Shown: positions 15,249 through 36,322, counted from the first letter of the stretch. The stretch is DNA of 64,000 nucleotides from Candidatus Omnitrophota bacterium (GCA_021735655.1 JAIPGM010000008.1:5922-69921), one strand, 5' to 3'. The notes: generated by a model not told the origin, from the sequence alone. Made by a program: numbers and translations.

Positions 15249-15276
15249 CCTTCCGATTTTTAAAATACCTTATCAA

Positions 15277-17166: not shown

Positions 17167-17466
17167 ATGAAGGGATTTGTTCGTATTTGGAACGAAGTTG
17201 ACCTTCAAGACATTGAAAAGAGCCTTATTGTGGTCGGTGATCTTAGTAGCGAGTGTTTTTGTTGCCACAAATTAGGAATTGAGTTAAAGAGCCGCAACTG
17301 TCCCGATTGTGGGGCATTTTTTAAGTATATGGGCTTTCGTCGGAAGGTCCAACCTAACTTCCTCAAACGGATCAAAGAAGAGCAACCAAGGCTAATTCTG
17401 ATTGATTTTGACGACCTTAAGCGGGCTATCGGCAATCGTGATGCTCGCAAACTTCTTGATATCTGA
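17167..17466 (+). CDS. Hypothetical protein with CxxC...CxxC metal-binding motif
   Basis: CFCCHK...CPDCG cysteine pairs; 99 aa. Confidence 0.3.
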   Translation: MKGFVRIWNEVDLQDIEKSLIVVGDLSSECFCCHKLGIELKSRNCPDCGAFFKYMGFRRKVQPNFLKRIKEEQPRLILIDFDDLKRAIGNRDARKLLDI

Positions 17467-17604
17467 AAAAATTTACAGTCACTCCTTAATCTGCTAATTT
17501 TTTAATATTTTTCATTCACAAACCCTAATTTTTGCGCTAAAATACTGTATAGCATAAGTTTAGTATAACTGCGATAACTGCGATAACTGTTAACAGGAGG
17601 AAAA

Positions 17605-17793
17605 ATGAGTGGTGAAATTTTAACTGTTGGCGATGTCTGTGAATATTTGAAGATACCACGTTCAACCCTTTATAAGCTTTCTAAAGATAAGATTATCCCG
17701 GCTTTTAGGGTTGGTCGGCACTGGCGTTTTCAAAAGGAAAAGATTGAAGCCTGGTTGGAGGGGCAAACTAGCGAAAAGGTTAGTCGGCAATAA
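17605..17793 (+). CDS. Excisionase/MerR-family helix-turn-helix DNA-binding protein
   Basis: LTVGDVCEYLKIPRSTLYKL...FRVGRHWRF is typical of the excisionase-family HTH_17; RBS aggagga. Confidence 0.65.
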   Translation: MSGEILTVGDVCEYLKIPRSTLYKLSKDKIIPAFRVGRHWRFQKEKIEAWLEGQTSEKVSRQ

Positions 17794-17794
17794 T

Positions 17795-18391
17795 ATGTGG
17801 TATTGGGTTTTTAAGCATATATTTTGGATTTTATTCACTGTCCTTTTTAGGCTTAAGGTAGAGGGTTTAGATAATTTACCGCAAAAGACAAATTTTATCT
17901 TAGCGGCTAATCATGCTAGTTTTTTAGACCCGCCTTGTATTATGGCTGGTATCCCAATGAGGGTTTATCCGATTGCCGCAAGACATCTTTATAAGGTAGG
18001 ATTAGTTGGCTGGTTTTTAAGAAAAATAAATGCTTTTTCAGCCGGAGGATCATCAAGCCTGGCAGTTAAACTGTTAATGGAAGGCAAGAATGTTGGTTTA
18101 TCTCCAGAAGGAAAAATCAGTCTTAATGGTCAACTTAATGAATTTAGAAGAGGGGTAGCTTTGTTAGCGGCAAAAACCGGTCGGCCGGTTGTTCCTTGCG
18201 CTATTTTTGGTGCTTACGAGGCTCTTCCTTATGAAGCTAAATTTCCTAAATTATTTTCACCAATTAAACTAAAGATAGGCAAACCAGTGTATCTTTTAAA
18301 GGAGTTTGATGATGAGATTGACCCTATCTATCTGCGCGAAGGTACTTTTAAGATTCAAAATACAATAAAGGAGTTACTTAATGAAGAATAA
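17795..18391 (+). CDS. Lysophospholipid acyltransferase (PlsC-like LPLAT)
   Basis: HXXXXD motif AANHASFLDP; PEGKIS motif. The ORF track starts at 17711, but Met at 17795 avoids overlap with the upstream HTH gene. Confidence 0.7.
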   Translation: MWYWVFKHIFWILFTVLFRLKVEGLDNLPQKTNFILAANHASFLDPPCIMAGIPMRVYPIAARHLYKVGLVGWFLRKINAFSAGGSSSLAVKLLMEGKNVGLSPEGKISLNGQLNEFRRGVALLAAKTGRPVVPCAIFGAYEALPYEAKFPKLFSPIKLKIGKPVYLLKEFDDEIDPIYLREGTFKIQNTIKELLNEE

Positions 18392-19967
18392 GGGTTTAGT
18401 AAAAATAATTGTTTCTCGGACCATACCAGCCGATATTCCTAGTATAGTTCGGGCCCTAAGCAAAGTTGAAGAATTCCCTGAATATATAGCGACAATTAAA
18501 CAGGCCTCAATAATAGAAAAATCCCGTAACAAGATGAAAACGAAATGGCTTGTTCAGGTTGACCATGTCCCAATAAGTTGGATAGAGGAAGACACTTTAA
18601 ATCTTATAAAAAATACGATTACTTTTAAAGCCGTCGAAGGGGATTTGCAAGAATTTAAGGGGGAGTGGAAGTTTCAGGCTAAGCCTGAAGGAACCTTGGT
18701 TACTGTGACTGCTTATTTAAGAATCGACATACCAGCGATAAAAGATTTCGTTAATACTTATGTAGAAAAGATGCTAGTTAAGAATTTTACGGCGATATTA
18801 AAAGGTATCGAGAAGCGTTTAATTTCAATAAGATATAAAGGCCAGGGAAAAGATGAGATTAAAAAGATAGCCGGATTTGGAATCATTGGCCATTTGTATA
18901 ATTTTTATCATTTGGAAAAGTGCCTTAAGATGCTCAACCCTGACTTTAAGATGCCTTCACGAGAATTTTTGGGAAATCTGTTTAACGTTACTCCTTCGTT
19001 CAAGCTTTACGATATAGTAGACTTTAAGTCTAAATCCGGAGGTAGCGTTGATGGATGTTTCATTGTTGCCACTTTTATTCCTGATTTAATTGAAAAAGAT
19101 ATCTGGTCGATATTTTCGAAGGTGGTCCGGGCCTGTAAGATTGCTGAGAAACACGGGGTTGGTATAGTTACCTTAGGTGGCTTTACTTCGATTGTTGCCG
19201 AGCGGATTGGTCAGGCAATTAGTGAACAGGTTAACGTTCCGATTACCACTGGAAATACCTTTACTGCCGCAATGACCTTAGAAGGAGTTTATCGGGCGGT
19301 TAGAGCTTTAAATTTAGATATTGGTTCGTTAAAGGTAGCTATCGTTGGCGGGACCGGAGACATTGGAAGTGCTTGTGCTCGAGTTTTAGCTGATCAGGTC
19401 AAACAATTGTCTATAACTGGTAGGACCAAAGCTAATTTAAAACAGCTTAAACAAGAACTTAGCAAAAAGCATAAAGCCAGGATAGTTGCAACTACTAATA
19501 ATAAAAAGGCAGTAAGTGATGCTGATGTAATTATTGCTGCAGCTAGTGCTACCGAGTCAATACTTTCGATAGATTGGTTTAAGCCAGGGGCGATAATTTG
19601 CGATGTCGGCTACCCAAAGAATATTTCTTATGCCCAGACCGAAAGAGATGATATTCTTATTTTTTCTGGAGGTCTAGCTCGGAGCCCTAGTTCAATTAAG
19701 CTTCCGATTGATTTAGGCTTACCGAACTCGGAAGTTATCTATGGTTGTTTTGCTGAGGCGATTATTTTGTCTTTAGAAAAGCGTTATGAAAACTACAGTT
19801 TTGGTCGGGGAAATATTACTCCTGAGAAAATTAAAGAAATAAAAGAGCTAGGAGAAAAACACGGCTTTGAAGTTTCCCGATTCTGGTGGGGTGACAGGCT
19901 GCTCGATCAAGCGGCTATCGACAGAATAAAAGAAAGAGTTAATCTTGGAAAAGAACAACTAATATAA
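18381..19967 (+). CDS. Fusion protein: N-terminal SRPBCC (polyketide cyclase/START-like) domain + C-terminal acyl-ACP reductase (cyanobacterial AAR family)
   Basis: aa 1-150 SRPBCC-like. aa ~165-528 matches recalled AAR blocks: GIIGHL, LGGFTSI, TTGNTFTA, IVGGTGDIGSA, DVGYPKN, putative catalytic Cys in YGCFAEAI, NYSFGRGNIT, HGFE. Confidence 0.7.
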   Translation: MKNKGLVKIIVSRTIPADIPSIVRALSKVEEFPEYIATIKQASIIEKSRNKMKTKWLVQVDHVPISWIEEDTLNLIKNTITFKAVEGDLQEFKGEWKFQAKPEGTLVTVTAYLRIDIPAIKDFVNTYVEKMLVKNFTAILKGIEKRLISIRYKGQGKDEIKKIAGFGIIGHLYNFYHLEKCLKMLNPDFKMPSREFLGNLFNVTPSFKLYDIVDFKSKSGGSVDGCFIVATFIPDLIEKDIWSIFSKVVRACKIAEKHGVGIVTLGGFTSIVAERIGQAISEQVNVPITTGNTFTAAMTLEGVYRAVRALNLDIGSLKVAIVGGTGDIGSACARVLADQVKQLSITGRTKANLKQLKQELSKKHKARIVATTNNKKAVSDADVIIAAASATESILSIDWFKPGAIICDVGYPKNISYAQTERDDILIFSGGLARSPSSIKLPIDLGLPNSEVIYGCFAEAIILSLEKRYENYSFGRGNITPEKIKEIKELGEKHGFEVSRFWWGDRLLDQAAIDRIKERVNLGKEQLI

Positions 19968-19977
19968 GCTAAAGTTT

Positions 19978-20976
19978 ATGAAAGTGCTAGTTACCGGAGC
20001 TGACGGGTTTTTAGGTTCAAATCTGATTAGGCATTTGCTTGTTGCCGGGCATAAGGTTAAGGCCTTGATCCACAGTGATAAGGATTACGATGCTTTAAGC
20101 GGGCTTAAGGTTGATAAGTTAAAAGGCGACGTCCTTAGTCCAAAGTCGATTGATAAGGCAATGGCTGGGATTGATGCTGTATTCCATCTAGCCTCTTTAT
20201 ATAAGTTTTATCCTTGGTGGCAGAAAAAGGCTGGTCAGATCTATAAAGTAAATGTTCAAGGCACAAGAAATGTTTTAAAAGCCGCCAAAAAAAACAATAT
20301 CAAACGTTTTATTTTTACCAGCAGTATTGCTTCTTTAGGTAAACAGCTTGGTAAAAAACCGAGCGACGAAACAACCGTGCTTAATCTAAAAAGTAGAATT
20401 AGTCACTATGCCCGTTCAAAAGTATTAGCTGAAAATGAAGTTTTGAGTTTTGTCAGACAAGGCTTACCGGCAATAATTTTAAATCCAGCAGCTTTAATCG
20501 GTGAACGTGATTTTAAGCCAACCCCAACCGGTCAGATGATTATAGATTTTTTAAATCATAAGCTTCCGGTGACTTTTAATGGGATGATACCGTTGGCTGA
20601 TGTTGATGATGTAGCTAGGGCTCACCTGGTAGCTCTTGATAGGGGTAGAGTCGGTGAGCGTTATATTCTTTGTAATAATCGGGCCTATCCTTTGAAGGAG
20701 TTATTTTATTTAGTTGAGCAAATATCCGGAGTTTCTGCTCCGCGGTTAAAGATACCTTATCCTTTGTTAATGAGTTTTCTTTATTTTGATGAGGTTTTTT
20801 CTTATTTTTTAAAGAAAAGACCGCTTTTATCGAGCTCGGCGGCAAGATTTTTCCGCCGGGCAACGGTATTTGATAATAGTAAGGCAGCCAGGGAGTTGAG
20901 TTATGCGACCACTCCGATTACTACTAGTTTAGAAAAGGCCGTTAACTGGTATAAGGAAAATAGCTATGTCCAATAA
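19978..20976 (+). CDS. NAD-dependent epimerase/dehydratase family (extended SDR) oxidoreductase
   Basis: Rossmann VLVTGADGFLGSNLIRHL; YxxxK in SHYARSK. Confidence 0.75.
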   Translation: MKVLVTGADGFLGSNLIRHLLVAGHKVKALIHSDKDYDALSGLKVDKLKGDVLSPKSIDKAMAGIDAVFHLASLYKFYPWWQKKAGQIYKVNVQGTRNVLKAAKKNNIKRFIFTSSIASLGKQLGKKPSDETTVLNLKSRISHYARSKVLAENEVLSFVRQGLPAIILNPAALIGERDFKPTPTGQMIIDFLNHKLPVTFNGMIPLADVDDVARAHLVALDRGRVGERYILCNNRAYPLKELFYLVEQISGVSAPRLKIPYPLLMSFLYFDEVFSYFLKKRPLLSSSAARFFRRATVFDNSKAARELSYATTPITTSLEKAVNWYKENSYVQ

Positions 20977-21038: not shown

Positions 21039-23162
21039 ATGTTAGATCTGATTTTTAATCCAGCTAATTATTATTGGAATCCTCATGCGGTTCTCTATCA
21101 TTTAGTAGGAATTCTTACTTTGCTTGAGGGCATTTTTATTTTTAGTCAGAATCGTAAATCCTTAGTAAATTTAGCCTATGGCCTTAGTTGTTTATCAGTT
21201 GCTCTTTGGCTTACCGGAACCGGCATGGCTTTAAACAGTAAACTTGAACTAACTGCTTTAATTTGGACCAGGACTTATTTCTTTTTAGGAGTAATATTTA
21301 ATACTCCTTCGATATACTTTTTTTCAGTTGCTTGGCAGAAATCGCTTTTTCCTCAAGAGGAAAACAAAAAAATAAAAATAGTAATTTTTAACTTTCTTTG
21401 CGGTTTGGGGTTCTATATTTTTTGTCTTAACTCTAATCTTTTTATCCAGGGTTTCTGGAATCATTCCTGGGGGTTTTACCCTAAGGCCGGCAGTCTTTAT
21501 TTTATTTTTGTCGGTTGGGTTTATGCTTTGATGATGCTTATGTTGTTTAATTTCATCCAGGTTTACCGCAAGGGGGGTGATCCGGTTATAAAAAAACAAG
21601 CTAAATTAATGATTATTGCTTTTTCGATTGGCTACCTGGGCACAGCCGAGTTTTTGATGGACTATGGATTTACTCTTTATTTTTTAGCCTTTATTCCGGT
21701 GTTTATCTGTATTACTATTGTCGGTTACAGCGTTATTCGCTATCGGACTATGGATATTGAAACGGTAATCCATAAGACCGCTTTATGGATTTTTTCTTAT
21801 TCGCTTATTGCGGCTCCGATATTTTTTCTCTATAACGGGCTGTCTGAGAAGATTGAGAGTTCTAACTTATTGTTGTTTATTTTTTGGACAGCTAGTTTTT
21901 TGGCGGTTACCGTTTATTTACGGTTAATTCAACCAAAAATTGATCATTTTTTCCAAAGACGTAAAGCTAATTTGGAAGACATTTCTAGTGAATTTACCAA
22001 AAATCTTGTCCATTTAAAGGGTCTTAATCAGCTAATCGAACGCATCAAAGAAACAATCACTAATGCTTTTTATCCGCAGAATATCGATATTTTAATCTAT
22101 GGCCAGGATGATGAAAGATATCAAGATGAGCCATTTTTGCTTTGGTTGGTTAAGAATGACAAAATTGCCTATCGTGATTTTATTGAAATCGATCCGGCTT
22201 ATTCAGCAATTCGTAGCGATGCCAGAAAATATTTCGACTCAGTAGCCGCAGCGGTAGTTGTTCCTTTAGTTTTAAATGAACGTCTTTTGGGGGTAATTAA
22301 TTTAACCAGAAAATCAAACCTAAAACGCTACGCTGCCGTAGATTTTAATTTTTTACGTCTGCTGAAAAACCAGTCGGCAATTGCTATATCTAACTCTTTA
22401 GTTTATGAGAACATTGAAGAGCAGGTTAAAAGGCGGACTGAGGAGTTAGTTGAGGTGCAGAAGCAATTGATTCAGGCTGGAAAATTAGCTACTGTTGGTA
22501 CTTTGGCTGGAGGAGTAGCTCATGAGATAAATAATCCTTTGGCGGCAATTTTAACTAATGCTCAGATGTTGCTTATGTCACCGGATGAGCTCAATGTTGA
22601 GGAGGCCCGTGAATCATTAGAGTTAATCGAAGAGGCGACCAAGCGTTGTCGAACCATCGTCAGAAAATTAATGACCTATGCTCGAAAACCAGTAGAATCA
22701 ACAACAATTTCTAAAATAAACCTTATTGATGTTGTCAATAAGGTGAAAGCCTTCCTTGATTATCAGTTTAAGCAGGAAAATATTCAAATAGTTGTCGTTG
22801 CTGAAACTAGCAACTATCCGGTAGTCGGCAATCAGAATGAGTTAGAGCAGGTGGTAACCAATATAGTTTTAAATGCCAAGGATGCTACGAAGCGGGTTAA
22901 AAAAAGCGGCATTATAGATATATCGTTAATGAGCAATGATGGTTGGATAAGGCTGGATATCAAAGATCAAGGCTCTGGCATTTCAAAAGACCATGCTTTA
23001 AAGATTTTTGACCCCTTTTTTACTACTAAAGACGTAGGAAAGGGGTTAGGTTTGGGTCTTTCAATATCACAGTCGATCATTGAGAAGTATAAGGGTTCGA
23101 TTTTTTTTCATTCTCAGGAAGGTGAGGGCACTATTTTTACCATAAATCTGCCTGAGGCCTGA
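21039..23162 (+). CDS. Sensor histidine kinase (multi-TM N-terminus, GAF-like middle, HisKA + HATPase_c)
   Basis: About 9 N-terminal TM helices; H-box GVAHEINNPLAAI; N-box NAKDA; G-boxes DQGSGI and GLGLGLSIS. Confidence 0.8.
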   Translation: MLDLIFNPANYYWNPHAVLYHLVGILTLLEGIFIFSQNRKSLVNLAYGLSCLSVALWLTGTGMALNSKLELTALIWTRTYFFLGVIFNTPSIYFFSVAWQKSLFPQEENKKIKIVIFNFLCGLGFYIFCLNSNLFIQGFWNHSWGFYPKAGSLYFIFVGWVYALMMLMLFNFIQVYRKGGDPVIKKQAKLMIIAFSIGYLGTAEFLMDYGFTLYFLAFIPVFICITIVGYSVIRYRTMDIETVIHKTALWIFSYSLIAAPIFFLYNGLSEKIESSNLLLFIFWTASFLAVTVYLRLIQPKIDHFFQRRKANLEDISSEFTKNLVHLKGLNQLIERIKETITNAFYPQNIDILIYGQDDERYQDEPFLLWLVKNDKIAYRDFIEIDPAYSAIRSDARKYFDSVAAAVVVPLVLNERLLGVINLTRKSNLKRYAAVDFNFLRLLKNQSAIAISNSLVYENIEEQVKRRTEELVEVQKQLIQAGKLATVGTLAGGVAHEINNPLAAILTNAQMLLMSPDELNVEEARESLELIEEATKRCRTIVRKLMTYARKPVESTTISKINLIDVVNKVKAFLDYQFKQENIQIVVVAETSNYPVVGNQNELEQVVTNIVLNAKDATKRVKKSGIIDISLMSNDGWIRLDIKDQGSGISKDHALKIFDPFFTTKDVGKGLGLGLSISQSIIEKYKGSIFFHSQEGEGTIFTINLPEA

Positions 23163-23223: not shown

Positions 23224-23670
23224 ATGAATGATTTTTGGGATGTAAATAAAATAAAGAAGGTTTTACCTAAAGACTATCCTTTTCTTTTTATCGATCGGGT
23301 AGTTGAGATTGATTTGGTTGAAAAAAGGATAAAAGGCCTAAAAAATATAACCGTTAATGAGCATTTCTTTTCAAACCACTTTCCTGGTAAACCAATTATA
23401 CCAGGGGCAATTCTGGTTGAGGCAGCCTATCAGGCGAGTATTATTCTTTGTGTTGCTCTTGGTGAGGATAGCCAGTTTAAGATCGATTACTGTTTAGATA
23501 AGGTAGAGGCCAGTTTTTTTAGTAAGGTTAGAGCCGGAGATCAACTTATTTTAGAGGCCAAAGCCGAGAAACTAACAGCTAAAACAGCAGCAGTCAGAGT
23601 GGTTGTTTCAGTAAGTGACAATAAGTGTGCCGAGTTAACTGTTTTTTTAAAGCTAAATAAAGGGGGCTAA
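23224..23670 (+). CDS. FabZ/FabA-like hot-dog 3-hydroxyacyl-ACP dehydratase
   Basis: FFSNHFPGKPIIPGAILVEAAYQ, the FabZ catalytic His region. Confidence 0.7.
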   Translation: MNDFWDVNKIKKVLPKDYPFLFIDRVVEIDLVEKRIKGLKNITVNEHFFSNHFPGKPIIPGAILVEAAYQASIILCVALGEDSQFKIDYCLDKVEASFFSKVRAGDQLILEAKAEKLTAKTAAVRVVVSVSDNKCAELTVFLKLNKGG

Positions 23671-23671
23671 G

Positions 23672-24049
23672 ATGGTTAAAAGAATTTTAATTATTGAAGA
23701 TGAACAGATAATAACTAAAAGTTTACAGCGTTTGCTAAAAAAAGAAGGTTATCAGGTAGAGATTTCTAATAACGGGGCAGATGCTCTTGAGAAAATAAAG
23801 GCTGGAGAGTTTAATTTAATAGTCAGCGACATTAGAATGCCAGATATGGATGGCATTGAGACAATTAAAGCTATTCGAAAGTCTCTCACCGAGCAGGGCA
23901 AGCCTTTGATTCCTGAGATATTAATTACCGGTTATGCTGATGAGTCTAAATATCAGGAAGCTTTGGAGCTAAAAGTTGCCGATTACCTCTATAAACCTTT
24001 TGACATTAAAGATTTCCTAGAGGCAGTTAGGAGAAATATCAATGCTTAA
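23672..24049 (+). CDS. Single-domain response regulator receiver
   Basis: ILIIEDE, LIVSDIRMPDMDG, conserved K in YLYKP. Confidence 0.8.
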   Translation: MVKRILIIEDEQIITKSLQRLLKKEGYQVEISNNGADALEKIKAGEFNLIVSDIRMPDMDGIETIKAIRKSLTEQGKPLIPEILITGYADESKYQEALELKVADYLYKPFDIKDFLEAVRRNINA

Positions 24050-24779
24050 AGGAAAAACTGCAATTATTAGCGGAGCCAGCCGTGGCATTGGCCGGGCTAT
24101 TGCAATGAAATTAGCCACCGAAGGTGCAAATATATCTTTTAGTTATTTAAACAGCAAAGTTGCTGCTGATAAATTAGAAAATGAGATCAATTCGCTGGGT
24201 GTAAAAGCTAAGGGCTATCAATTAGATATAAAGGATTTTGACTCAGTAAGTAAGTGGGTCAGTGATACTAAGGAAAGTTTCGGTGGTTTAGACATCATAG
24301 TTAATAATGCCGGAATTATTATTGATAAAGCTCTGGCCTTGATGGAACACTCAGATTGGAAGAGTGTTTTAGATACTAATTTAGGCGGTTTATTTAACTT
24401 AACCCGGGCAGCAATTATAACTTTAATAAAACAAAGGTCCGGTCAAATTATTAACATTACTTCGGTAACCGGAATGGTCGGGATGGCTCGTCAGACGAAT
24501 TATGCGGCAACTAAGGCCGGAATCATCGGCTTTACCAAGTCTTTGGCCAGAGAAGTTGGTTCTTATAATATAAGAGTTAATGCGATTGCTCCGGGCTTTA
24601 TTGAAACTGATATGCTCAGCGGCCTAAAAGATAAATATCGAGAAGATGTCACTCAACAAATTCCTTTGCGGCGGTTTGGCAAGCCTGAAGAAGTCGCTGG
24701 TTTGGTAAGTTTTTTGGCTAGTGAAAAAGCAGACTATATTACCGGCCAGGTAATAGTTGTTGATGGCGGGATGACTTAA
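24042..24779 (+). CDS. fabG: 3-oxoacyl-ACP reductase (FabG-type SDR)
   Basis: GASRGIGRAIA, NNAG, YAATKAG catalytic YxxxK. Confidence 0.85.
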   Translation: MLKGKTAIISGASRGIGRAIAMKLATEGANISFSYLNSKVAADKLENEINSLGVKAKGYQLDIKDFDSVSKWVSDTKESFGGLDIIVNNAGIIIDKALALMEHSDWKSVLDTNLGGLFNLTRAAIITLIKQRSGQIINITSVTGMVGMARQTNYAATKAGIIGFTKSLAREVGSYNIRVNAIAPGFIETDMLSGLKDKYREDVTQQIPLRRFGKPEEVAGLVSFLASEKADYITGQVIVVDGGMT

Positions 24780-24782
24780 TTT

Positions 24783-26015
24783 ATGGATAAAACTGTTGTT
24801 GTAACTGGAGTCGGCGTACTTTCTCCAAACGGGATTGGCAAAGCTGCTTTTTGGCAGGCCTTAAAAGATGGTAAGTCGGGAATTAAGCCGATTACTATTT
24901 TTAATCCTGGTTTTTTTAAGAGTAAACAAGCCGGAGAGATATCTGATTTTAAGGCTGAGGAGTTTTTAGGGACAAAAGGACTTCAAAATACCGATCGAGC
25001 TACTAAATTAGTTTGTTCAGCCTCAAAGTTGGCCCTGGAGGATTCAGAGTTAAATATCACTGAGCGAAACACCGACAATATTGGAGTAGTTACCGGGACC
25101 ACACTTTCATTATGGAATATTGCTGAATTGAGTCGGGAAATGGTTGAAGACGGCCCGCAATTTGTTACTGCCGGAATTTTTCCCGGAACTACCATAAATA
25201 GCGCATCGAGCCAGATATCAATTCGTCATAAGATTAAAGGTTTTAATACTACGATTTCAACCGGCTATACTGCGAGCCTAGATGCTCTTAAATATGCTAC
25301 AAATTTCATTAAGCTTGGCCGAGCAAAGGCAGTTTTAGTCGCTGGAGTTGAAGGTTTAACTTTTGCCGGGTTTACTGGTTTTTATAAGATTGGTTTTTTA
25401 GCCGGCATAAAGGGGGAGGAAATATCCTGTCCTTTTGATAAAAGAAGGAATGGAATCGTTTTAGCTGAGGCAGCAGTAGTTTTAGTTGTTGAAGATGCTG
25501 AGCACGCTGAGGCCAGAGGAGCTAAGATTTATGCTGAGCTAGCTGCCATTGAGAATTCATTTGATGCTTTTCGGGCTGCTAAATATGAGCCTCAGGCTAG
25601 TGGTTTAAAAAGAACGATGCTTAAAGCTTTAAAGTCAGCTAAGCTGCATGGGGAAGATATTGATTATGTTTCTTCAGCGGCTAATTCAGTTCCTCAGCAG
25701 GATGCTTTAGAGACTATGGCAATAAAGGAAGTTTTTAATATTTATGCTGAGAAGACTCCGGTAAGCGCAATTAAGTCAATGGTTGGTGAGTCGGTGAGTG
25801 CCGGAGGAATCATGCAACTGACAGCCGCTTTAGGTTCCCTTGAAGAAGGGTTTATCCCGCCGACAATAAATTATCGAGAAAAAGATCCTGAATGTGACCT
25901 TGACTACGTAGTTAATCAGGCTAGATCGCAAGAAGTAAACAATATATTAGTGAATAATTTTGGTCCTGGCGGCAATAATGCCACGGTTGTCGTCAAAAAA
26001 TACGGAGGTGTATAG
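24783..26015 (+). CDS. Ketosynthase-like chain-length-factor (KS-beta / ApeC-like), catalytically inactive
   Basis: Thiolase fold, but active-site Cys replaced (ISTGYTASLDA) and both His positions lost (SAANSVPQQD; KSMVGESVSAGG). Confidence 0.7.
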   Translation: MDKTVVVTGVGVLSPNGIGKAAFWQALKDGKSGIKPITIFNPGFFKSKQAGEISDFKAEEFLGTKGLQNTDRATKLVCSASKLALEDSELNITERNTDNIGVVTGTTLSLWNIAELSREMVEDGPQFVTAGIFPGTTINSASSQISIRHKIKGFNTTISTGYTASLDALKYATNFIKLGRAKAVLVAGVEGLTFAGFTGFYKIGFLAGIKGEEISCPFDKRRNGIVLAEAAVVLVVEDAEHAEARGAKIYAELAAIENSFDAFRAAKYEPQASGLKRTMLKALKSAKLHGEDIDYVSSAANSVPQQDALETMAIKEVFNIYAEKTPVSAIKSMVGESVSAGGIMQLTAALGSLEEGFIPPTINYREKDPECDLDYVVNQARSQEVNNILVNNFGPGGNNATVVVKKYGGV

Positions 26016-26266
26016 TGGTACCCGAAGATTTAGGAAAACAAATTAAGGATATAGTCGCAAGAGTTATTGAAATTGAGCTTGATCAGGTTACTCCCGATGC
26101 TGACTTTATTAATGATTTGGGAGTAGATTCTTTGAAGGCAATTGAGATTACCGGAGCCATTGAGAAAGCCTTTCGGGTAGTTGTGCCGGAAGAAAAGATT
26201 CGTGATATTCGCACCCTTAACCAGGCGATCAGTTTAACTCAGCAGCTGCTCCAAGCAAAAGGATAA
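26015..26266 (+). CDS. Acyl carrier protein
   Basis: 83 aa; phosphopantetheine attachment LGVDSLKAIEI. Confidence 0.8.
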   Translation: MVPEDLGKQIKDIVARVIEIELDQVTPDADFINDLGVDSLKAIEITGAIEKAFRVVVPEEKIRDIRTLNQAISLTQQLLQAKG

Positions 26267-26268
26267 GA

Positions 26269-26718
26269 TTGAAAATGACTTGGGATAAAGAAAAAGTAAA
26301 GTCTATTCTGCCGCAAAGAGAACCTTTTTTATTTATTGATGAGGTAATTGAGGTAGATGAAGGTAAAAGAATAGTTGCTAAGAAGTATCTTGATCCTAAA
26401 GCTGATTTTTTCAAGGGGCATTTTCCCGGTAATCCGGTTATGCCTGGGGTTTTAACTATTGAAGCTATGGCTCAGGCGGCAATATTAGTTTATTCAACCG
26501 CAAAACCAGAAATAGCCAAGAAGAGGCCAGATTATTATTTTGGTAGCGTTAAGGCAAAGTTTAAATTGCCAGTTTTTCCTAATGAAACATTAATTTTAGA
26601 GGCCGAAATTATTAAAGTTACTGATTTTGGCGGAGTAGTAGATACAATTGCCAGAGTAAAAGATAAAGTAGTAGCTCAAGCAAGCAGTACTTTTGGGGTG
26701 AAGTTGAGAGATGAATAA
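26269..26718 (+). CDS. FabZ-like 3-hydroxyacyl-ACP dehydratase
   Basis: FFKGHFPGNPVMPGVLTIEAMAQA canonical FabZ motif. Confidence 0.8.
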   Translation: MKMTWDKEKVKSILPQREPFLFIDEVIEVDEGKRIVAKKYLDPKADFFKGHFPGNPVMPGVLTIEAMAQAAILVYSTAKPEIAKKRPDYYFGSVKAKFKLPVFPNETLILEAEIIKVTDFGGVVDTIARVKDKVVAQASSTFGVKLRDE

Positions 26719-27931
26719 CGATAGACGAGTAGTGGTAACTGGTATTGGGGTAATCTCAGCAGTTGGTAATGGCAAAGAGACTTTCTGGAAAGCAATCAAG
26801 GAGGGAAAGTCCGGAATAAGCGAAATTACTTCAATGGATACTTCAGTTTATAAGTGCCACTTAGGTGGTGAGGTGAAGGATTTTAATCCTGAAGAGTTTA
26901 TTCCTAAGCGGAGAATAAAATTTCTTGGGAGATCTTCTCAACTAGCCATAGCTGCATCAAGTCTCGCTTTAAAAGATGCTAAGCTTGACTATAAAAGCAC
27001 TGAAAGAAAGGAAATGGGGGTTATTGTTGGGACAACTACTGGCGAACGACCCTTGGAGGAGCTTTTAGCCTCTTGGGCTAAGGGTGGCTTTAAAGATGTT
27101 GACCGGGCAAAAGTATTTCAAGCCACAGTGAATAATATTTCGGCTAATGTTGGAATAGAGTTTAAGGCTCGAGGGGTAAATTATCTTATTCCTACGGCTT
27201 GCGCTGCCGGAAATTACGCAATCGGTTGTGGATTTGATTTAATTAGAAGTGGGGATTTAAACTTTGCTTTAGTTGGCGGAGCCGATGCTTTTTCTAAATT
27301 TGCTTTTACCGGGTTTCAAAGGATTTATGCTATGAGCCCTGACTTTATGCGTCCTTTTGATAAAAATAGAAGAGGGATGATGCAGGGGGAAGGTTCGGGA
27401 ATGCTTCTCCTAGAGTCTTACAAATCAGCTAAGAAAAGAGGTGCTGATATCTATGCTGAGGTTTTAGGCTATGGCTTATCTTGTGATGCTTATCATGCGA
27501 CAGCACCTGATCCAAAAGGAATAGCTAAAGTTATGGAGAAGGCCTTAGCTGAGACCGGCCTAACCTATAAAGATGTAGATTATATTTGTGCTCATGGAAC
27601 CGGAACCGGTCCAAATGATAAGGCCGAGTGCATAGGTATTAAGGCGGTTTTTAAAGAACGCTCTAAAGAGATTATGGTTAGTTCAATAAAATCTATGCTT
27701 GGTCATGCTATGGGGGCAGCTTCGGCAATTGAAGCAGCTGCTTGTTGCCTAGCGGTCAAAGATGATATCGCGCCGCCAACCATAAACTATGAGACCCCTG
27801 ATCCTGATTGTGACATAGATTGTGTCCCGAATAAAGCCAGAAAGGCAAAGATTAATGTAGCCCTTAATAATGGTTTTGCTTTTGGCGGTAACAATGCCTG
27901 CGTGGTTATTAAAAAAATAGAAGATGCCTAA
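26711..27931 (+). CDS. Beta-ketoacyl-ACP synthase (KAS I/II-type, Cys-His-His)
   Basis: Active Cys TACAAGNYA; His AHGTGTGPND; His KSMLGHAMGAAS; C-terminal GFAFGGNNA. Confidence 0.85.
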   Translation: MNNDRRVVVTGIGVISAVGNGKETFWKAIKEGKSGISEITSMDTSVYKCHLGGEVKDFNPEEFIPKRRIKFLGRSSQLAIAASSLALKDAKLDYKSTERKEMGVIVGTTTGERPLEELLASWAKGGFKDVDRAKVFQATVNNISANVGIEFKARGVNYLIPTACAAGNYAIGCGFDLIRSGDLNFALVGGADAFSKFAFTGFQRIYAMSPDFMRPFDKNRRGMMQGEGSGMLLLESYKSAKKRGADIYAEVLGYGLSCDAYHATAPDPKGIAKVMEKALAETGLTYKDVDYICAHGTGTGPNDKAECIGIKAVFKERSKEIMVSSIKSMLGHAMGAASAIEAAACCLAVKDDIAPPTINYETPDPDCDIDCVPNKARKAKINVALNNGFAFGGNNACVVIKKIEDA

Positions 27932-29405
27932 TAAATATGACGTTATAGTTATTGGCGCTGGGATCGGCGGATTAACTGCTGCTGCCATACTAGCCAGAAA
28001 TGGCAAAAAGGTGTTGGTTTTGGAGAAGAATCCTATAGCCGGAGGTTATGCGGTTAATTTTAAGAGGGGTGAGTTTGAGTTTGATGCTTCTTTACATTTG
28101 CTAAACGGGTTTTTTCCTGGAAAACCAACTTATCACTTTTTGCAATTAGCCGGAATTGATAATAAAGTAACTTTTTTAAAACCCGAATATCTTTATCGTT
28201 CAGTTTTTCCGGATTACGATATCAGAGTGCCACAATGTGACCCTAAAGCCTATATTAATATTTTAGCTAAATATTTTCCTAAAGATAAGCCCAAGCTTGA
28301 AGAATTATTTAGTTTGATGTATCGTATATTTTGTCGAATTCAAGATATCGAAGGTGACAAAATATCACCGGCTGAGTTAACTGGTTATATCGGTAAGACC
28401 CATCAAGATGTTTTAGATGAATTCAAAATTAGTAATCAGCTGGCCGCTTTAATATCACAAGTTTGGCCTTTTATTGGTACCCCGCCGTCTCAGCTTCCTT
28501 TTTTAGTTTTTTTGTCATCTTTCAGTGATTTTATTTACAATGGTGGATATTATCCGAAAGGCGGCGGCCAAGCAATTTCAGATGCTTTGGTTGATGTAAT
28601 TTGTGAGAACCAAGGAGAAGTTATTTTCAAAGAAAAGGTTAGCAAAATTCTTATCGAAGGTAATTCAGCGTATGGTTTAGTGGACCAATTCGGTAATGAG
28701 TTTTTTGCCAAAGAAATAATTTCAAACATTGATGCTAATTTTCTTTTCGGTGAGTTGATTGAAAATAAATATTTGCCTAGTGATTTTTTAGATAAAGTTT
28801 CTCGTTTTAAGCCATCAATTTCGGCTTTCCAGGTTTACTTAGGTTTAGATATCGAAGCAGGCAAACTCGCTATAAACGACTATACTATATTTTCTAATCC
28901 TGACTATGACTTATCTAAACAATATCAAGAATCTTTGGTTAATAATGTTGAGGTGGTTCCTATAGAAATAAGTTTTCATAACTCTCTGTTTGATTCTGGC
29001 TTTCCTAAATCAAGCACTTTGAGTATAGTTTCTTTGGCCGGCTATGATTTTTGGCAAAATCTATCAAAACAAGAATATGCGGTAAAAAAGAAAAAATTGG
29101 CCGATATTTTAATTAAGCGAGCTGAAGACTTTATTCCTGGTTTATCGGGAAGGATTAAATTGATTAATATAGCTACGCCAATTACTATGGAGCGTTATAC
29201 CGGGAATTCAGCTGGTGCTATTTATGGTTGGAGCCAAACTATGGATCAATATGGTTCAAAGAGGATGCGGCAGAATACACCAATTGATAATCTTTTTCTT
29301 GTTGGAGCCTGGACTAGACCAGCAGGAGGAGTTTCTGGGGCAATGCAATCCGGAGCAATGGTATCGAAAAAAATCCTAATTAATGCAGCTAATGTCAAAA
29401 AATAA
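27924..29405 (+). CDS. FAD/NAD(P)-dependent oxidoreductase, phytoene-desaturase (CrtI)-like family
   Basis: N-terminal dinucleotide fold VIVIGAGIGGLTAAAILARNGKKVLVLEKNPIAGG; length and C-terminal pattern typical of the CrtI/amine-oxidase superfamily. Confidence 0.7.
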   Translation: MPNKYDVIVIGAGIGGLTAAAILARNGKKVLVLEKNPIAGGYAVNFKRGEFEFDASLHLLNGFFPGKPTYHFLQLAGIDNKVTFLKPEYLYRSVFPDYDIRVPQCDPKAYINILAKYFPKDKPKLEELFSLMYRIFCRIQDIEGDKISPAELTGYIGKTHQDVLDEFKISNQLAALISQVWPFIGTPPSQLPFLVFLSSFSDFIYNGGYYPKGGGQAISDALVDVICENQGEVIFKEKVSKILIEGNSAYGLVDQFGNEFFAKEIISNIDANFLFGELIENKYLPSDFLDKVSRFKPSISAFQVYLGLDIEAGKLAINDYTIFSNPDYDLSKQYQESLVNNVEVVPIEISFHNSLFDSGFPKSSTLSIVSLAGYDFWQNLSKQEYAVKKKKLADILIKRAEDFIPGLSGRIKLINIATPITMERYTGNSAGAIYGWSQTMDQYGSKRMRQNTPIDNLFLVGAWTRPAGGVSGAMQSGAMVSKKILINAANVKK

Positions 29406-30702
29406 AAGAATTGTTGTTACTGGATTGGGTCCTTTGTCAGCCATTGGTATGGGCAAGGAGGCTTTATGGAAGTCTGTTTTAGCAGAAAAGACGGGATTGA
29501 CTTTAGAAAAATACAGTATCAATGGTCAGGAATTGGGTGACTATTATGCCCATCGGATCAAAGATTTTGATATTAACGATTTTAATATTGATAAAAATAT
29601 TTTGGAAGATATTAAGGCTTGGAAAGAGCAAGCTAATCCCATCGATCTTTTTTATCTTTTGGCTGTAGTTAAGTTAGCTCTGAGTGATTCCAAAATAAAC
29701 TATACTAATAGAGCTGAAACAGAAAGATTAGGGTTGATAGTAACGCATGAGAATCCTGGCCTAGACCAATTCTATGAAGAAGTCATAAACGAGTCTTATG
29801 ATTTTCTAGTAAAGGGTAATAATAGTGTAATTTCTCGGAAGGATTATTTTCAAGAATTTTATCGAAAATTCGCCAAACGCGGTTACGAACTCCAGACTTT
29901 TATGCCGCTTTTTCATTTAGCTAAAGTTTTTAATATCCATAATTACTCTATATTCTTATGCAATGCTTGTGCTTCGGGTTTATTTGCCGTCGAGGCAGCC
30001 GCTGATATTATTAAAAGTGGTAAATGTAACACAGTTGTGGTTGCCGGGTCAGATTGTACCAGTATTTTTAAATATCTTTGGTTCAAAGGATTAGATATGT
30101 ATGCTGAAGATGGTAAGATAAAGCCCTTTGCTAAAAATAGGAATGGTTTTGTTACTGGCGATGGTGGAGCTGGCATCGTATTAGAAGATTTATATAGCGC
30201 GTTAGAAAGAGGCGCTCATATTTATGCTGAATATTTAGGAGGAGGATTTCATTTAGAGGGTTGGAAAGTTGCTATGCCGGAGATAAACGGTGATTCATAC
30301 AAAAAAGCTATCATGCAATCTTTGCAAAGAAGTGATGTTCCAAAAGAGGCAATCGATTTACTTGTACCTCATGGCGTGGGAACTACGGCTGCCGATTATT
30401 ATGAGGCAAAGGCTATTACGAGTATATTTGGTAAAAATTGTAAAAAACCTTTAATGGCAGCTTTGAAGCCTTATATCGGCCATAATTTGGGAAGCACAGC
30501 CCTATTGGAATTAGCAATTTCAATATTAGCTTTAGAGAATAATTATTTACCAAAAACACTCAATCTTACCGAAGTTGATCCAAAATTAGGAGTTAATTTA
30601 GTGACTACTTCTAAAGCTTATGATATGCGAACATTGATGAAGACAGCTTGTGGATTTGCCGGTTACAATGGTTCAGTTATTCTAAAAAAATATACTAAAT
30701 GA
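29383..30702 (+). CDS. Second beta-ketoacyl synthase-like protein with divergent N-terminal region
   Basis: Cys in NACASGLFA; His in PHGVGTTAAD and YIGHNLGSTA. First ~110 aa unlike FabF; start overlaps the upstream gene. Confidence 0.7.
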   Translation: MQLMSKNKRIVVTGLGPLSAIGMGKEALWKSVLAEKTGLTLEKYSINGQELGDYYAHRIKDFDINDFNIDKNILEDIKAWKEQANPIDLFYLLAVVKLALSDSKINYTNRAETERLGLIVTHENPGLDQFYEEVINESYDFLVKGNNSVISRKDYFQEFYRKFAKRGYELQTFMPLFHLAKVFNIHNYSIFLCNACASGLFAVEAAADIIKSGKCNTVVVAGSDCTSIFKYLWFKGLDMYAEDGKIKPFAKNRNGFVTGDGGAGIVLEDLYSALERGAHIYAEYLGGGFHLEGWKVAMPEINGDSYKKAIMQSLQRSDVPKEAIDLLVPHGVGTTAADYYEAKAITSIFGKNCKKPLMAALKPYIGHNLGSTALLELAISILALENNYLPKTLNLTEVDPKLGVNLVTTSKAYDMRTLMKTACGFAGYNGSVILKKYTK

Positions 30703-36188: not shown

Positions 36189-36322
36189 GGCTTAAACCTC
36201 CCTCTAAGGTTCTGTCGCTTGGCAAAGATGATTTCAGAGATTCTAAGCAAATCTCAGAAATTAGATTAGCGACACCGCAGGTGGAGCAAAGGAAACCTGG
36301 AAGCAAAAAAGTTGATTTTTTG

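Follow-up and report, generated by a model that had tools for sequence, protein, structure and literature searches.

The cyanobacterial acyl-ACP reductase AAR, PigE and GluTR all form a thioester on an active-site Cys and channel the resulting aldehyde to a partner (PMC8341465); for AAR this partner, the aldehyde-deformylating oxygenase (ADO), is bound by the AAR N-terminal domain (bioRxiv 2024.10.28.620694). PigE and TamH, of the prodigiosin and tambjamine pathways respectively, carry an AAR-like N-terminal reductase fused to an aldehyde-receiving module. In PigE, whose conserved catalytic Cys is Cys296 (PMC8341465), this module is a C-terminal PLP aminotransferase, and the substrate is a short 3-acetyloctanoyl thioester of the pigment pathway. 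All characterised members of the superfamily handle a reactive, insoluble aldehyde via a bound partner enzyme. The TAD domains of NRPS modules (CarI; 9e4x/9e50) share the fold, but they use NAD rather than NADP, act on peptidyl-PCP and are proposed to amidate; they have an invariant Cys and a TTG motif, the roles of which have been described (bioRxiv 2024.10.28.620694). Aldehyde formation dependent on ElbD has been reported in the myxobacterial ElbD/ElbE system (PMC9131029). As described, ElbD is a single polypeptide whose reductase is of the FAR1/NAD_binding_4 type, and it has neither an SRPBCC domain nor a kinase linked to it.

The known SRPBCC/START-like binders (TTHA0849, the Coq10/RatA proteins of PF03364, and the ARO/CYC proteins of type II PKS) stand alone or are fused with other SRPBCC domains. 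Here we describe one fused to an AAR-like reductase, encoded in a stretch of 64,000 nucleotides (the window) from a Candidatus Omnitrophota bacterium (GCA_021735655.1 JAIPGM010000008.1:5922-69921). In the literature searched, we found no description of an SRPBCC domain fused to, or paired in an operon with, an AAR-like reductase.

An SRPBCC domain fused to an AAR-like reductase

The original prediction, made from the sequence of the window, was of a gene encoding an SRPBCC domain followed by an AAR-type reductase. An ATG-to-stop ORF of 528 aa is found exactly at 18381..19967 on the + strand, and both of its domains were matched by profile, sequence and fold. The N-terminal domain matches PF03364 (Polyketide_cyc) at aa 24-128 (E 1.2e-11; 45.4 bits, against a gathering cutoff of 23.4) and PF10604 (Polyketide_cyc2), the profile proposed for checking it, at aa 8-147 (E 7e-7). 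It also matches the SRPBCC protein TTHA0849 (2d4r) in the PDB (E 1.2e-13) and superimposes on it with a TM-score of 0.93 and an rmsd of 1.5 Å (Foldseek), indicating a helix-grip fold. Along with this fold and PF03364, it shares an aromatic/Gly signature with the known binders, and W56, F82, G87 and G94 are invariant among 204 unique fused sequences.

The reductase domain aligns with S. elongatus AAR (orf1594; 6jzu/6jzq) over aa 166-497, corresponding to AAR residues 2-335, with about 30% identity (phmmer, E 1.8e-37), and superimposes on 6jzu with a TM-score of 0.87 and an rmsd of 2.7 Å. Every motif named in the prediction is present and aligned (GIIGHL, LGGFTSI, TTGNT, VGGTGDIGSA, DVGYPKN, GCFAEA, GRGNIT and HGF), and C456 falls on AAR C294. 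The two proteins thus have in common the 360-aa reductase fold, the catalytic Cys, TTG, GxxGxxG with its following Arg, and HGF. Nevertheless, calling the domain cyanobacterial-type was too strong, as it scores 172.9 bits against TIGR04058, the AAR equivalog model (E 1.1e-50; aa 166-497), where the cutoff is 449.7, and in the tree of the family the cyanobacterial AAR sequences fall far outside, as an outgroup. Given this low score, the substrate and even the reaction type could differ from those of AAR. The domain also matches PigE (4ppm, E 1.3e-34), and relative closeness is mixed: the NCBIfam model of the PigE N-terminus scores slightly higher in bits (182 vs 173), whereas the AAR sequence has the better E-value. 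Similarity to the TAD domains is lower (TM-score 0.66-0.75, E 1e-7, ~19% identity), although they possess the same invariant Cys and TTG. The two-subdomain AAR fold with these two features, the Cys lying at the cleft, which defines the AAR/PigE-N/TAD superfamily (COG5322), is found here; NAD_binding_4 was matched only by the neighbouring SDR or by L021-type SDRs, the reductase itself being of the AAR type.

Conservation extends across the active site. C456 is present in 202 of the 204 unique fused sequences, T289, G291, D408, E459 and S473 in all of them, and R348, located after strand β-2, in 198; GxxGxxG is intact and the TTG motif (T289-T290-G291) is conserved. The conserved R348 fits NADPH as the cofactor. 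Judged by these residues, the AAR-like domain keeps its predicted catalytic apparatus.

The AF2 model of the whole fusion has a pLDDT of 89.1 and a pTM of 0.83, and its linker (aa 154-165) coincides with the gene boundary in relatives where the two domains are split. In these sister lineages, the SRPBCC domain is a gene of its own (156-169 aa) adjacent to the reductase gene; it lies directly upstream in the closest unfused relatives (L039, L040-42), and a Desulfobacterales MAG (locus L123) has the operon SRPBCC-GMC-AAR-FAAL-ACP. The persistence of the pair as adjacent separate genes suggests that the partnership is functional. Other reductases of the family bear N-terminal PilZ or HTH-PilZ fusions, and GAF fusions also occur.

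The fusion was described as unusual, which is true relative to characterised enzymes. Within Omnitrophota, however, it is a two-domain enzyme of a common family: there are more than 200 unique fused sequences, all of those with a taxon label belonging to Omnitrophota/PVC, and more than 1000 homologues spread phylum-wide under generic database names. The gene is highly conserved and strongly constrained in this widespread uncultured phylum.

Table 1 Features of the fusion gene and its surroundings (positions in the window).
Feature	Coordinates	Strand	Basis
Best sigma-70-like site of the + strand, in the one sizeable gap between genes that precedes the unit	17515..17543	+	Weak; total of promoter-like sites not above shuffled expectation
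PlsC/Aas-type acyltransferase	17711..18391 (probable ATG 17795)	+	PF01553 E 4.6e-22
Lipid-binding SRPBCC domain (Polyketide_cyc/Coq10-RatA-like), aa 1-153, with a long helix at its C-terminal end	18381..18839	+	PF03364, PF10604, 2d4r, Foldseek
Inter-domain linker, aa 154-165	18840..18875	+	Lowest pLDDT block (64) of AF2 model
AAR-like NAD(P)H-dependent acyl-thioester reductase domain, aa 166-528	18876..19967	+	6jzu, 4ppm, TIGR04058, Foldseek
TTGNT motif	19245-19259	+	
GGTGDIG motif	19347-19367	+	
R348 codon	19422-19424	+	
Catalytic Cys456 codon	19746-19748	+	
Extended SDR, HpnA-like NAD-dependent epimerase/dehydratase family	19978..20976	+	PF01370 E 2e-40
HisKA_7TM-GAF-HisKA-HATPase sensor histidine kinase	21039..23162	+	PF16927 E 1.5e-10 (aa 1-330); HisKA, HATPase_c, GAF
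FabZ-like dehydratase	23224..23670	+	PF07977; TIGR01750 112 bits
Single-domain response regulator, between FabZ and FabG	23672..24049	+	tblastn homology; our RR profile
FabG-type ketoreductase	24042..24779	+	TIGR01830 311.8 bits, above cutoff
KS paralogue without active-site Cys (STGYTAS), chain-length-factor-like	24783..26015	+	PF00109/PF02801; sequence inspection
Acyl carrier protein, GVDSL motif	26015..26266	+	PF00550 E 1.1e-14
FabA/ApeI-like dehydratase	26269-26718	+	Pfam
KS, active site intact	26711-27931	+	Pfam; sequence inspection
CrtI-like flavin amine oxidoreductase (PF01593)	27924-29405	+	Pfam
KS, active site intact	29383-30702	+	Pfam; sequence inspection
Second multi-TM GAF histidine kinase	30699-32891	+	Pfam; N-terminus matches our kinase N-terminal profile
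Response regulator	33029-33406	+	Pfam
GAF-like-HD-GYP (HD_5) protein	33418-34605	+	Pfam
Best terminator-like hairpin and T-run, directly after the last gene of the unit	34633..34654	+	Weak

Genomic context of the fusion gene

The absence of an ADO gene, noted in the prediction, was borne out within the window: none of the 55 ORFs scanned with Pfam (nearly all plausible genes of at least 100 aa) matched an ADO family, and a tblastn search with an ADO query gave no match, either in the window or among 31 related loci. What had been overlooked were the conserved partners, i.e. an upstream PlsC-like acyltransferase, a HisKA_7TM kinase with a response regulator, and a FAS-like cluster with its own ACP.

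The acyltransferase gene and the fusion gene share 11 nt, across the start codon of the latter, and the two are judged from this arrangement to be translationally coupled. Its HX4D motif is intact (HASFLD, aa 68-73), its top NCBIfam matches are acyl-ACP--phospholipid O-acyltransferase models, and its identity to the AT domain of a FAAL-ACP-AT protein resembling ElbD is 28-37%. A PlsC-like gene lies directly upstream in 31 of 54 dereplicated fused loci, but this link is limited to the crown clade and is absent from the basal fused lineages.

An SDR does follow the fusion gene, as predicted, and is a candidate aldehyde/ketone reductase; it scores 324.7 bits against TIGR03466 (HpnA), for which the cutoff is 367.65. 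It is only an optional neighbour, however, being found downstream in 8 of 30 fused loci; elsewhere its place is taken by a GMC oxidoreductase or a ThDP enzyme, or is empty. The three families that occur at this variable position between reductase and kinase all handle aldehydes or alcohols.

The most deeply conserved neighbour is the HisKA_7TM kinase. It lies within 3.5 kb downstream in 28 of 30 fused loci and upstream in none of 38; it is directly adjacent in 28 of 49, often with overlapping stop and start codons, and it is also found in lineages whose protein is only 30-41% identical to that of the window and which have no PlsC gene. The linkage is far more frequent for reductases that bear the SRPBCC domain (28/30) than for those that do not (4/11). 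The literature searched that mentions the HisKA_7TM domain gives no ligand for it; this near-obligate pairing provides a concrete candidate ligand or regulatory target.

Finally, the fusion gene heads a 17-kb co-directional FAS-like cluster, in a unit of 16 co-directional genes separated by -23 to +137 nt. The cluster is of the ladderane type (Rattray et al. 2009; antiSMASH 'ladderane'; PMC2649909, PMC9902471), a class recognised by multiple diverged FabF paralogues, in some of which the canonical active-site residues are missing, together with a pfam01593 CrtI-like oxidoreductase, ACP, FabG and FabZ. Here, we found three KS genes (one without the Cys), PF01593, ACP, FabG and FabZ, the core being the dehydratase-KS-CrtI-KS block at 26269..30702. 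The question of what this class produces dates from 2009. This core set is also found beside AAR-like genes in six related loci, in four of which the AAR-like genes are embedded in KS-FabG-FabZ-KS-CrtI clusters. Radical SAM genes are present in three related loci but not in the window, which likewise showed no ether-forming enzyme, AGPS-like or other. The response regulator between FabZ and FabG is 38-59% identical (tblastn) to the gene after the kinase in about 20 related loci, its equivalents in other loci are assigned to PF00072, and HD_5 proteins are encoded near the module in four other loci. FAAL-ACP(-AT) genes adjoin the reductase in L001 and L123, FadL-type outer-membrane channels occur in basal and split lineages, and L123 has an RND efflux system.

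A proposed aldehyde-releasing pathway

With its reaction assigned by homology to AAR and the PigE N-terminus, the fusion protein would most likely convert carrier-bound fatty acids to fatty aldehydes. We give a probability of about one half to the whole explanation, i.e. an aldehyde-releasing reductase with SRPBCC capture that off-loads the FAS-like cluster and is wired to a kinase. The acyl chain would be moved from an acyl carrier protein, for which the product of the ACP gene in the cluster is the likely candidate, onto Cys456. [quoted passage not shown] The ping-pong acyl-Cys mechanism of AAR, the release of an aldehyde and the need for a partner to accept it would thus be retained, with the SRPBCC domain capturing the aldehyde in the role that a bound partner plays in characterised relatives. 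It would present the aldehyde to the next tailoring enzyme of the lineage, the HpnA-like SDR in the window and a GMC oxidoreductase, a FAR-like SDR or a ThDP enzyme elsewhere. The gene order further suggests that the product of the cluster may be off-loaded by two routes, through the acyltransferase of PlsC type to an ester-linked chain and through the reductase to a chain in reduced form (aldehyde, alcohol or ether type), in a loose parallel with the split ElbD/ElbE system. The HisKA_7TM kinases, single-domain response regulators and HD-GYP proteins would control the unit or sense its product.

Several observations point in this direction. The ACP of the cluster, the FAAL-ACP(-AT) neighbours in L001 and L123, and the AAR-like genes inside KS clusters suggest an acyl-ACP substrate; the gene between reductase and kinase, always from an aldehyde- or alcohol-handling family, suggests an aldehyde product; and the acyltransferase gene over the start codon, with its HX4D motif intact, suggests a link with lipids. 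Capture of a hydrophobic aldehyde by the SRPBCC domain is consistent with the precedent of hand-off to partners, with the adjacent split genes and with the high pTM. The locus nonetheless differs from its closest models. Compared with cyanobacterial AAR, the host is non-cyanobacterial and probably anaerobic, and an acyltransferase, a kinase and a FAS-like cluster take the place of ADO; compared with PigE, the fused partner is N-terminal and looks like a non-enzymatic lipid-binding domain.

If this proposal is correct, a lipid-binding domain carried within the enzyme itself would solve the problem of aldehyde hand-off in a new way, and the compact protein would be a tool for engineering the production of fatty aldehydes and alcohols. 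It could also be the missing reductase of the ElbD-like proteins of anaerobes, which usually have no FAR reductase domain (PMC9131029), and would then bear on the sources of bacterial ether lipids and brGDGT-type biomarkers. ElbD matches were found in 93 of 267 Black Sea Omnitrophota MAGs, although the presence of an ElbD homologue is not always a sign of ether lipids (PMC11868695). An ElbD/ElbE-type module would combine an AGPAT/PlsC-type acyltransferase, an acyl-activating domain, an ACP and an ElbE-like protein of the NAD-epimerase family in one locus; families that might correspond to some of these parts are present in the window (AT, PF01553; SDR, PF01370; ACP), and FAAL was found only in L001 and L123.

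Alternative functions of the fusion protein

Since the kinase link is universal and the PlsC link is limited to the crown clade, a signalling role fits at least as well as one in bulk lipid synthesis. The SRPBCC-AAR protein might accordingly be the synthase of a hydrophobic signal derived from a fatty aldehyde and the adjacent kinase its receptor, a reading that we consider rather unlikely. The signal would be the aldehyde, an alcohol or, where a ThDP enzyme follows as in the split lineage, an α-hydroxyketone; the SRPBCC domain would carry it to the membrane, the output would pass through single-domain response regulators and HD-GYP/c-di-GMP, and the PilZ domains on some reductases would close a feedback loop. 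The strictly downstream kinase, its persistence in distant lineages and its preference for SRPBCC-bearing reductases all fit, as do the PilZ, HTH-PilZ and GAF fusions, the recurrence of RR-HD-GYP or GAF-HD-GYP proteins nearby, the FadL-type channels and RND system, and the lack of a published HisKA_7TM ligand. However, a multi-TM kinase beside a lipid-modifying gene also fits plain regulation, as in des-desKR of B. subtilis, and the operon in L123 has no kinase. With a large FAS-like cluster and an acyltransferase of the glycerolipid type, the locus resembles one for bulk lipids more than one for a signal. The source genome is generally rich in c-di-GMP parts, which makes the c-di-GMP links less specific. 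The resemblance of the locus to des-desK-desR, RpfF/RpfC/RpfG and CqsA/CqsS is by analogy only, with no homology claimed: a fatty-acid-pathway gene lies beside a multi-TM kinase, with HD-GYP output in some loci, but in the present locus the sensor domain is of the HisKA_7TM kind, and most of the response regulators have a single domain. The proposed logic of a synthase and its receptor resembles that of the last two systems. The full form of this idea, a new lipid synthase-receptor pair whose response-regulator/HD-GYP/c-di-GMP/PilZ circuit controls how much of a specialised lipid is made by Omnitrophota and by anaerobes related to them, is a shade more doubtful still; it would make a fatty-aldehyde-derived molecule the first ligand class for the orphan HisKA_7TM sensor domain.

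We consider it improbable that the AAR-like domain releases no aldehyde and instead performs another Cys-dependent reaction, carries out a four-electron reduction to the alcohol, or serves as a lipid- or NAD(P)H-sensing subunit of the kinase. The TAD domains, with other chemistry proposed for the same Cys and TTG (bioRxiv 2024.10.28.620694), set a precedent, and the score well below the AAR equivalog threshold, the regulatory-domain fusions and the strict adjacency of the kinase are compatible with it. On the other hand, the full catalytic set is nearly invariant, the NADPH-fitting Arg included, as expected of an active reductase; the TAD domains bind NAD via an Asp where the fused family has an AAR-like Arg context; and the genes that follow encode aldehyde- or alcohol-handling enzymes.

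Slightly less probable again is a catalytic rather than a carrier SRPBCC domain, one that would act on a polyketide or polyene bound to ACP, by folding, dehydration or cyclisation, before reductive release, in the manner of the aromatase/cyclases TcmN, ZhuI and WhiE-ORFVI of type II PKS. Structures of the ARO/CYC type are the next-best fold matches of the N-terminal domain after TTHA0849 (TM-score 0.63-0.82, Foldseek), and the CLF-like KS beside intact KSs, ACP, KR and ApeI-like dehydratases resembles a type II PKS. Yet identity to the ARO/CYC proteins is only 15-18%, the best matches being PF03364 (Coq10/RatA type) and TTHA0849, and the KR and dehydratases of the cluster imply a reduced or unsaturated chain rather than a poly-β-keto chain that needs cyclisation. 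In addition, L123 has the SRPBCC-AAR pair with only FAAL and ACP and no KS, and many loci have no FAS genes nearby.

An ordinary cyanobacterial-type AAR of the alkane pathway, with ADO encoded elsewhere in the genome, is very hard to credit despite the full-length homology with conserved motifs and the JGI label 'fatty aldehyde-generating acyl-ACP reductase' on some homologues, given the equivalog score, the distant position of cyanobacterial AAR, the lack of ADO in the window and the 31 related loci, an entirely different neighbourhood, and the O2 requirement of ADO in MAGs that appear to come largely from anoxic settings. Elsewhere in the databases, thousands of relatives are mislabelled as 'shikimate dehydrogenase', 'SRPBCC family protein' or 'polysaccharide biosynthesis protein'.

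Architecture of the fusion protein and its relation to acyl-ACP reductase

The fused ORF is real: it runs from ATG to stop as a 528-residue protein, and both of the domains proposed in the original prediction were recovered. About 150 N-terminal residues match the SRPBCC family Polyketide_cyc (PF03364; E = 1.2e-11, with a score exceeding the gathering threshold), as well as Polyketide_cyc2 (E = 7e-7) and TTHA0849, an SRPBCC protein of solved structure (2d4r; E = 1.2e-13). [quoted passage not shown] The AlphaFold2 model, built from a 37-sequence alignment, was confident (mean pLDDT 89.1, pTM 0.83). With Foldseek, its C-terminal part matched AAR (TM 0.87, rmsd 2.7 Å) and its N-terminal part matched TTHA0849 (TM 0.93), followed by type II PKS aromatase/cyclases.

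Residue conservation was counted over 204 unique fused sequences. C456 is present in 202 of them, the three Rossmann glycines in at least 203, and T289, G291, D408, E459, S473, G495, and F496 in all 204. R348, located after strand β2 where the binder of the NADP 2'-phosphate is expected, occurs in 198 sequences and is Lys in 5 more. The SRPBCC signature residues W56, F82, G87, and G94 are invariant. This pattern indicates strong purifying selection on both domains and so supports an active reductase with a functional SRPBCC binding domain.

The description of the reductase as cyanobacterial-type did not hold. It scores 172.9 bits with the NCBIfam equivalog model for AAR, whose curated cutoff is 449.7, and slightly more (182 bits) with the NCBIfam model for the N-terminal thioester reductase region of PigE. 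A rough neighbor-joining tree of the reductase domain, calculated without support values, places cyanobacterial AAR on a long branch outside all of the gathered environmental sequences. By these sequence comparisons, the domain is homologous to AAR and not its equivalent. [quoted passage not shown] In AAR, PigE, and the distant relative GluTR, the aldehyde is handed directly to a bound partner (PMC8341465); the cyanobacterial partner, aldehyde-deformylating oxygenase (ADO), docks on the N-terminal subdomain of AAR (bioRxiv 2024.10.28.620694). As had been claimed, no ADO family was present among the 55 ORFs of the window scanned with Pfam, and tblastn with an ADO query found none in the window. 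Compared with the systems described so far, the fusion is a new architectural variant of AAR-like thioester reductases, located in a conserved, uncharacterized module.

Distribution and conserved neighbors

The fusion had been presented as unusual, but it is very common, though essentially limited to one phylum. An NCBI entry from a Candidatus Omnitrophica MAG is identical to the window protein, and the best 120 clusters are all ~520 aa long, 63-74% identical, and of the same two-domain Pfam pattern. The only names given to them are "SRPBCC family protein", "NAD(P)-binding domain-containing protein", or, at JGI, "fatty aldehyde-generating acyl-ACP reductase" / "amino acid dehydrogenase/RatA". 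All 31 loci in the species-representative genome set belong to Omnitrophota or to PVC MAGs labelled Planctomycetia. When 1.8 billion representatives were searched exhaustively, 3085 matched, about sixteen of them fused (28-59% identity) and the majority unfused proteins of ~360 aa. Some longer fused forms carry extra N-terminal domains (PilZ or HTH_17+PilZ), and where members of the PilZ-bearing lineage are named, they too are Omnitrophota; a PlsC-SRPBCC-AAR triple fusion was sought among the longer homologs and not found. Among the taxon labels obtained, fused forms are only Omnitrophota/PVC and one unfused sister is from Desulfobacterales. A literature search combining "acyl-ACP reductase" with "SRPBCC" yielded no paper on the combination, and nothing specific was found on AAR homologs in ether-lipid contexts or on Omnitrophota lipids.

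The closest unfused relatives (~40% identity; loci L039 and L040-42) possess a separate SRPBCC gene of 156-160 aa directly upstream of the reductase gene, at a spacing of 6 nt or overlapping it. A tight operon in a Desulfobacterales MAG (GCA_034520365.1; locus L123, 8216-14113) encodes, in order, SRPBCC, GMC oxidoreductase, AAR-like, FAAL, ACP, and radical SAM proteins. At least two clades of the rough neighbor-joining tree, which has no support values, mix fused with split forms. Judged from gene arrangement, the SRPBCC-reductase partnership is functional, not accidental. The parts of the Desulfobacterales operon are those of the Omnitrophota loci; an RND efflux system lies immediately upstream.

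A separate subfamily of unfused AAR-like proteins (L083, L084, L110, L114, L120, and L122) has relatives in Bacillota and other anaerobes annotated as shikimate dehydrogenase, a label that is probably wrong. The conserved gene order is a ~190-aa unknown, a ~300-aa unknown, the AAR-like gene, and two genes of ~160 and ~500 aa. In L120 these two encode GreA and a putative LysS (class II aaRS), whereas the match in the other loci is by ORF size only. Adjoining greA/lysS and unknown ORFs, these Bacillota-type proteins were uninformative as a guide to function.

We counted neighbors across 123 scanned loci, dereplicated at 85% identity, using our own profiles built from the sequences found. A kinase matching a HisKA_7TM-type N-terminal profile lies downstream (within 3.5 kb, same strand) in 28 of the 30 fused loci whose downstream sequence extends for 4 kb or more. 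In 28/49 loci it follows with no gene in between, often with overlapping stop and start codons, and it was found within 3.5 kb upstream in none of 38. The link is kept in lineages that share just 30-41% identity with the window protein, is far weaker for AAR-like proteins without SRPBCC (4/11), and is absent from the Bacillota-type subfamily. Matches of our "HD5" profile inside these kinases correspond to the N-terminal sensor region, not HD-GYP, and were discounted. Directly upstream of the reductase, a PlsC-like acyltransferase occurs in 31 of 54 loci, all of them within the window's own crown clade; the window copy overlaps the fusion gene by 11 nt and has an intact HX4D motif. The 99-aa CxxC protein of the window has counterparts of 69-82% identity in L001, L002, and L012, invariably flanked by a LOG-family gene on one side and the acyltransferase on the other.

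An SDR does follow the fusion gene, as originally noted, but it had been overweighted: present in 8 of 30 loci, it was ruled out as the defining partner. When the slot between reductase and kinase is filled, HpnA-like or FAR-like SDRs (sometimes fused to a 500-aa domain without Pfam match) are among the options, together with a ~430-aa GMC oxidoreductase, a second AAR paralog, and a B12 radical-SAM enzyme; the occupant in L001 is an ElbD/Aas-like FAAL-ACP-acyltransferase. The split lineage has a ThDP-dependent enzyme as the next gene. Because the substrates of SDRs, GMC oxidoreductases, and ThDP enzymes are in each case aldehydes or alcohols, these families are the best indirect evidence for an aldehyde product. 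The ~500-aa region (L021, 8551-11058; L031, 8415-10022; L057, L059, and L060) lacks a Pfam match even at E ≤ 1 and exists either as a C-terminal fusion to the FAR/HpnA-like SDR after the reductase or as its own gene; the L021 and L031 copies are 44% identical.

The operon and its FAS-like cluster

The original prediction missed the acyltransferase, the kinase, and an ACP-bearing cluster. Sixteen co-directional genes with gaps of -23 to +137 nt occupy 17.7-34.6 kb, in the order acyltransferase, fusion, SDR, HisKA_7TM kinase, FabZ, response regulator, FabG, Cys-less KS, ACP, FabA/ApeI-like dehydratase, KS, CrtI-like flavin amine oxidoreductase, KS, second multi-TM GAF kinase, response regulator, and GAF-like-HD-GYP protein. 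On either side of this block lie the top-ranking promoter-like site of the plus strand and the top-ranking terminator-like hairpin, which is weak evidence; terminator-like sites exceed the shuffled expectation (26 vs 15.6 ± 3.8), but promoter-like sites do not, so the boundaries rest mainly on gene spacing.

Features of the window
Positions	Strand	Feature	Remarks
249-629, 4455-4853, 47006-48568		Two stand-alone PilZ proteins and a GGDEF+HD-GYP protein	
8237-11443		1068-aa ORF	No Pfam family at E ≤ 0.001
17167-17466		99-aa protein	Two CxxC pairs; no Pfam match
18381-19967	+	SRPBCC-AAR fusion	
19978-20976		SDR	HpnA/epimerase-family, extended
21039-23162		HisKA_7TM-type kinase	PF16927, E = 1.5e-10
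23224-30702		"Ladderane-type" FAS-like cluster	FabZ, FabG, three KS, ACP, ApeI-like dehydratase, CrtI-like flavin oxidoreductase
23672-24049		Single-domain response regulator	Between FabZ and FabG; 1 nt after FabZ, 8-nt overlap with FabG
24783-26015		First KS paralog	Tyr replaces active-site Cys
26015-26266		Cluster's own ACP, 83 aa	PF00550; GVDSL
33418-34605		HD-GYP (HD_5) protein	
34620-43000		Probable integrated island	GC falls to 0.31; GC skew changes sign
34620-36188	-	Serine recombinase	In probable island
40782-41882	-	Mrr-type restriction nuclease	In probable island
60827-62680	-	Second large serine recombinase	

The cluster belongs to the "unusual FASII" class, called "ladderane" by antiSMASH; such clusters of Kuenenia, Desulfotalea, and Geobacter were proposed to be anaerobic makers of polyunsaturated chains, and an "OX" oxidoreductase is mentioned in the clusters of Rattray et al. 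(PMC2649909). No radical SAM gene was found in the window copy. "Ladderane" clusters are expressed in Omnitrophota and Desulfobacterota, their function not being known (PMC9902471). A KS-FabG-FabZ-KS-CrtI set flanks AAR-like genes in the Omnitrophota loci L048, L050, and L051 and also lies beside them in distant unfused lineages (L098-L100 and L108). The same three Omnitrophota loci repeat the HK-RR-FabG/KS order, and the response regulator wedged in the cluster suggests phosphorylation-dependent control of the enzymes themselves, not of transcription.

Locus L037, which also holds a fused SRPBCC-AAR gene and three HisKA_7TM kinases, encodes a 568-aa fusion of a response-regulator receiver to a complete ketosynthase (13622-15328; PF00072 + PF00109/PF02801). 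The N-terminal ~215 aa of the HD_5 protein are homologous to the cytoplasmic sensor region of HisKA_7TM kinases (59 profile matches inside kinases); L095 and L100 have full-length homologs close to the module, and L046 and L098 have RR-HD_5 proteins there.

Proposed role and alternatives

Our best explanation, to which as a whole we assign a probability of about 0.5, starts from an acyl chain that would move from an ACP (that of the cluster or, in other lineages, one loaded by a FAAL) onto C456. NADPH would then reduce the thioester, and the AAR-like domain would release a fatty aldehyde. This core chemistry, based on homology and residue conservation, is likely. The SRPBCC domain may replace the aldehyde-accepting partner enzyme of other superfamily members and pass the aldehyde to a lineage-specific tailoring enzyme, a hand-off role that we infer from superfamily precedent, the conserved fused and split pairing, and the high pTM. 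Of the interpretation first offered, aldehyde capture stays plausible, whereas the rarity, the cyanobacterial type, and the weight of the SDR had been overstated.

The acyltransferase and the reductase are the only plausible enzymes to off-load chains from the window cluster, and the products would be an ester-linked chain and a reduced chain (aldehyde, alcohol, possibly ether-type). At the level of domain families, this arrangement may correspond to the parts list of the myxobacterial ether-lipid system ElbD/ElbE. Most ElbD-like proteins of anaerobes are reported to miss the FAR domain (PMC9131029), and ElbD matches are frequent in Omnitrophota MAGs (PMC11868695), which makes it attractive, by analogy, to propose an AAR-type reductase in trans as the gap-filler.

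The main rival is that the reductase makes a hydrophobic signal sensed by the HisKA_7TM kinase. The kinase association is older and tighter than that of the acyltransferase. Some family members carry fused regulatory domains (PilZ, HTH, GAF), HD-GYP outputs are found repeatedly in the vicinity of the module, and FadL-type channels or RND pumps lie close by in several lineages; the literature found to mention HisKA_7TM gives no ligand for it. However, the same adjacency fits ordinary regulation of a lipid-remodeling gene, the Desulfobacterales operon has no kinase, and the genome is generally rich in c-di-GMP parts, which makes a c-di-GMP link to the module less specific. We consider such signaling unlikely. 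A catalytic, ARO/CYC-like SRPBCC domain is a lesser alternative, as is non-aldehyde chemistry of the AAR-like domain or a sensor role for the protein, to be set beside the signs of an active reductase and of an aldehyde product. A true alkane-pathway AAR, also a lesser alternative, can be dismissed, the cyanobacterial alkane pathway being ruled out by the sub-cutoff equivalog score, the absence of ADO matches in the window, and the distant branch of AAR.

Elsewhere in the window, the probable integrated island also carries a ClpP/NfeD-like protease, and downstream of the 1068-aa ORF are an alginate-export-like outer-membrane protein and a TPR-rich protein of 631 aa.
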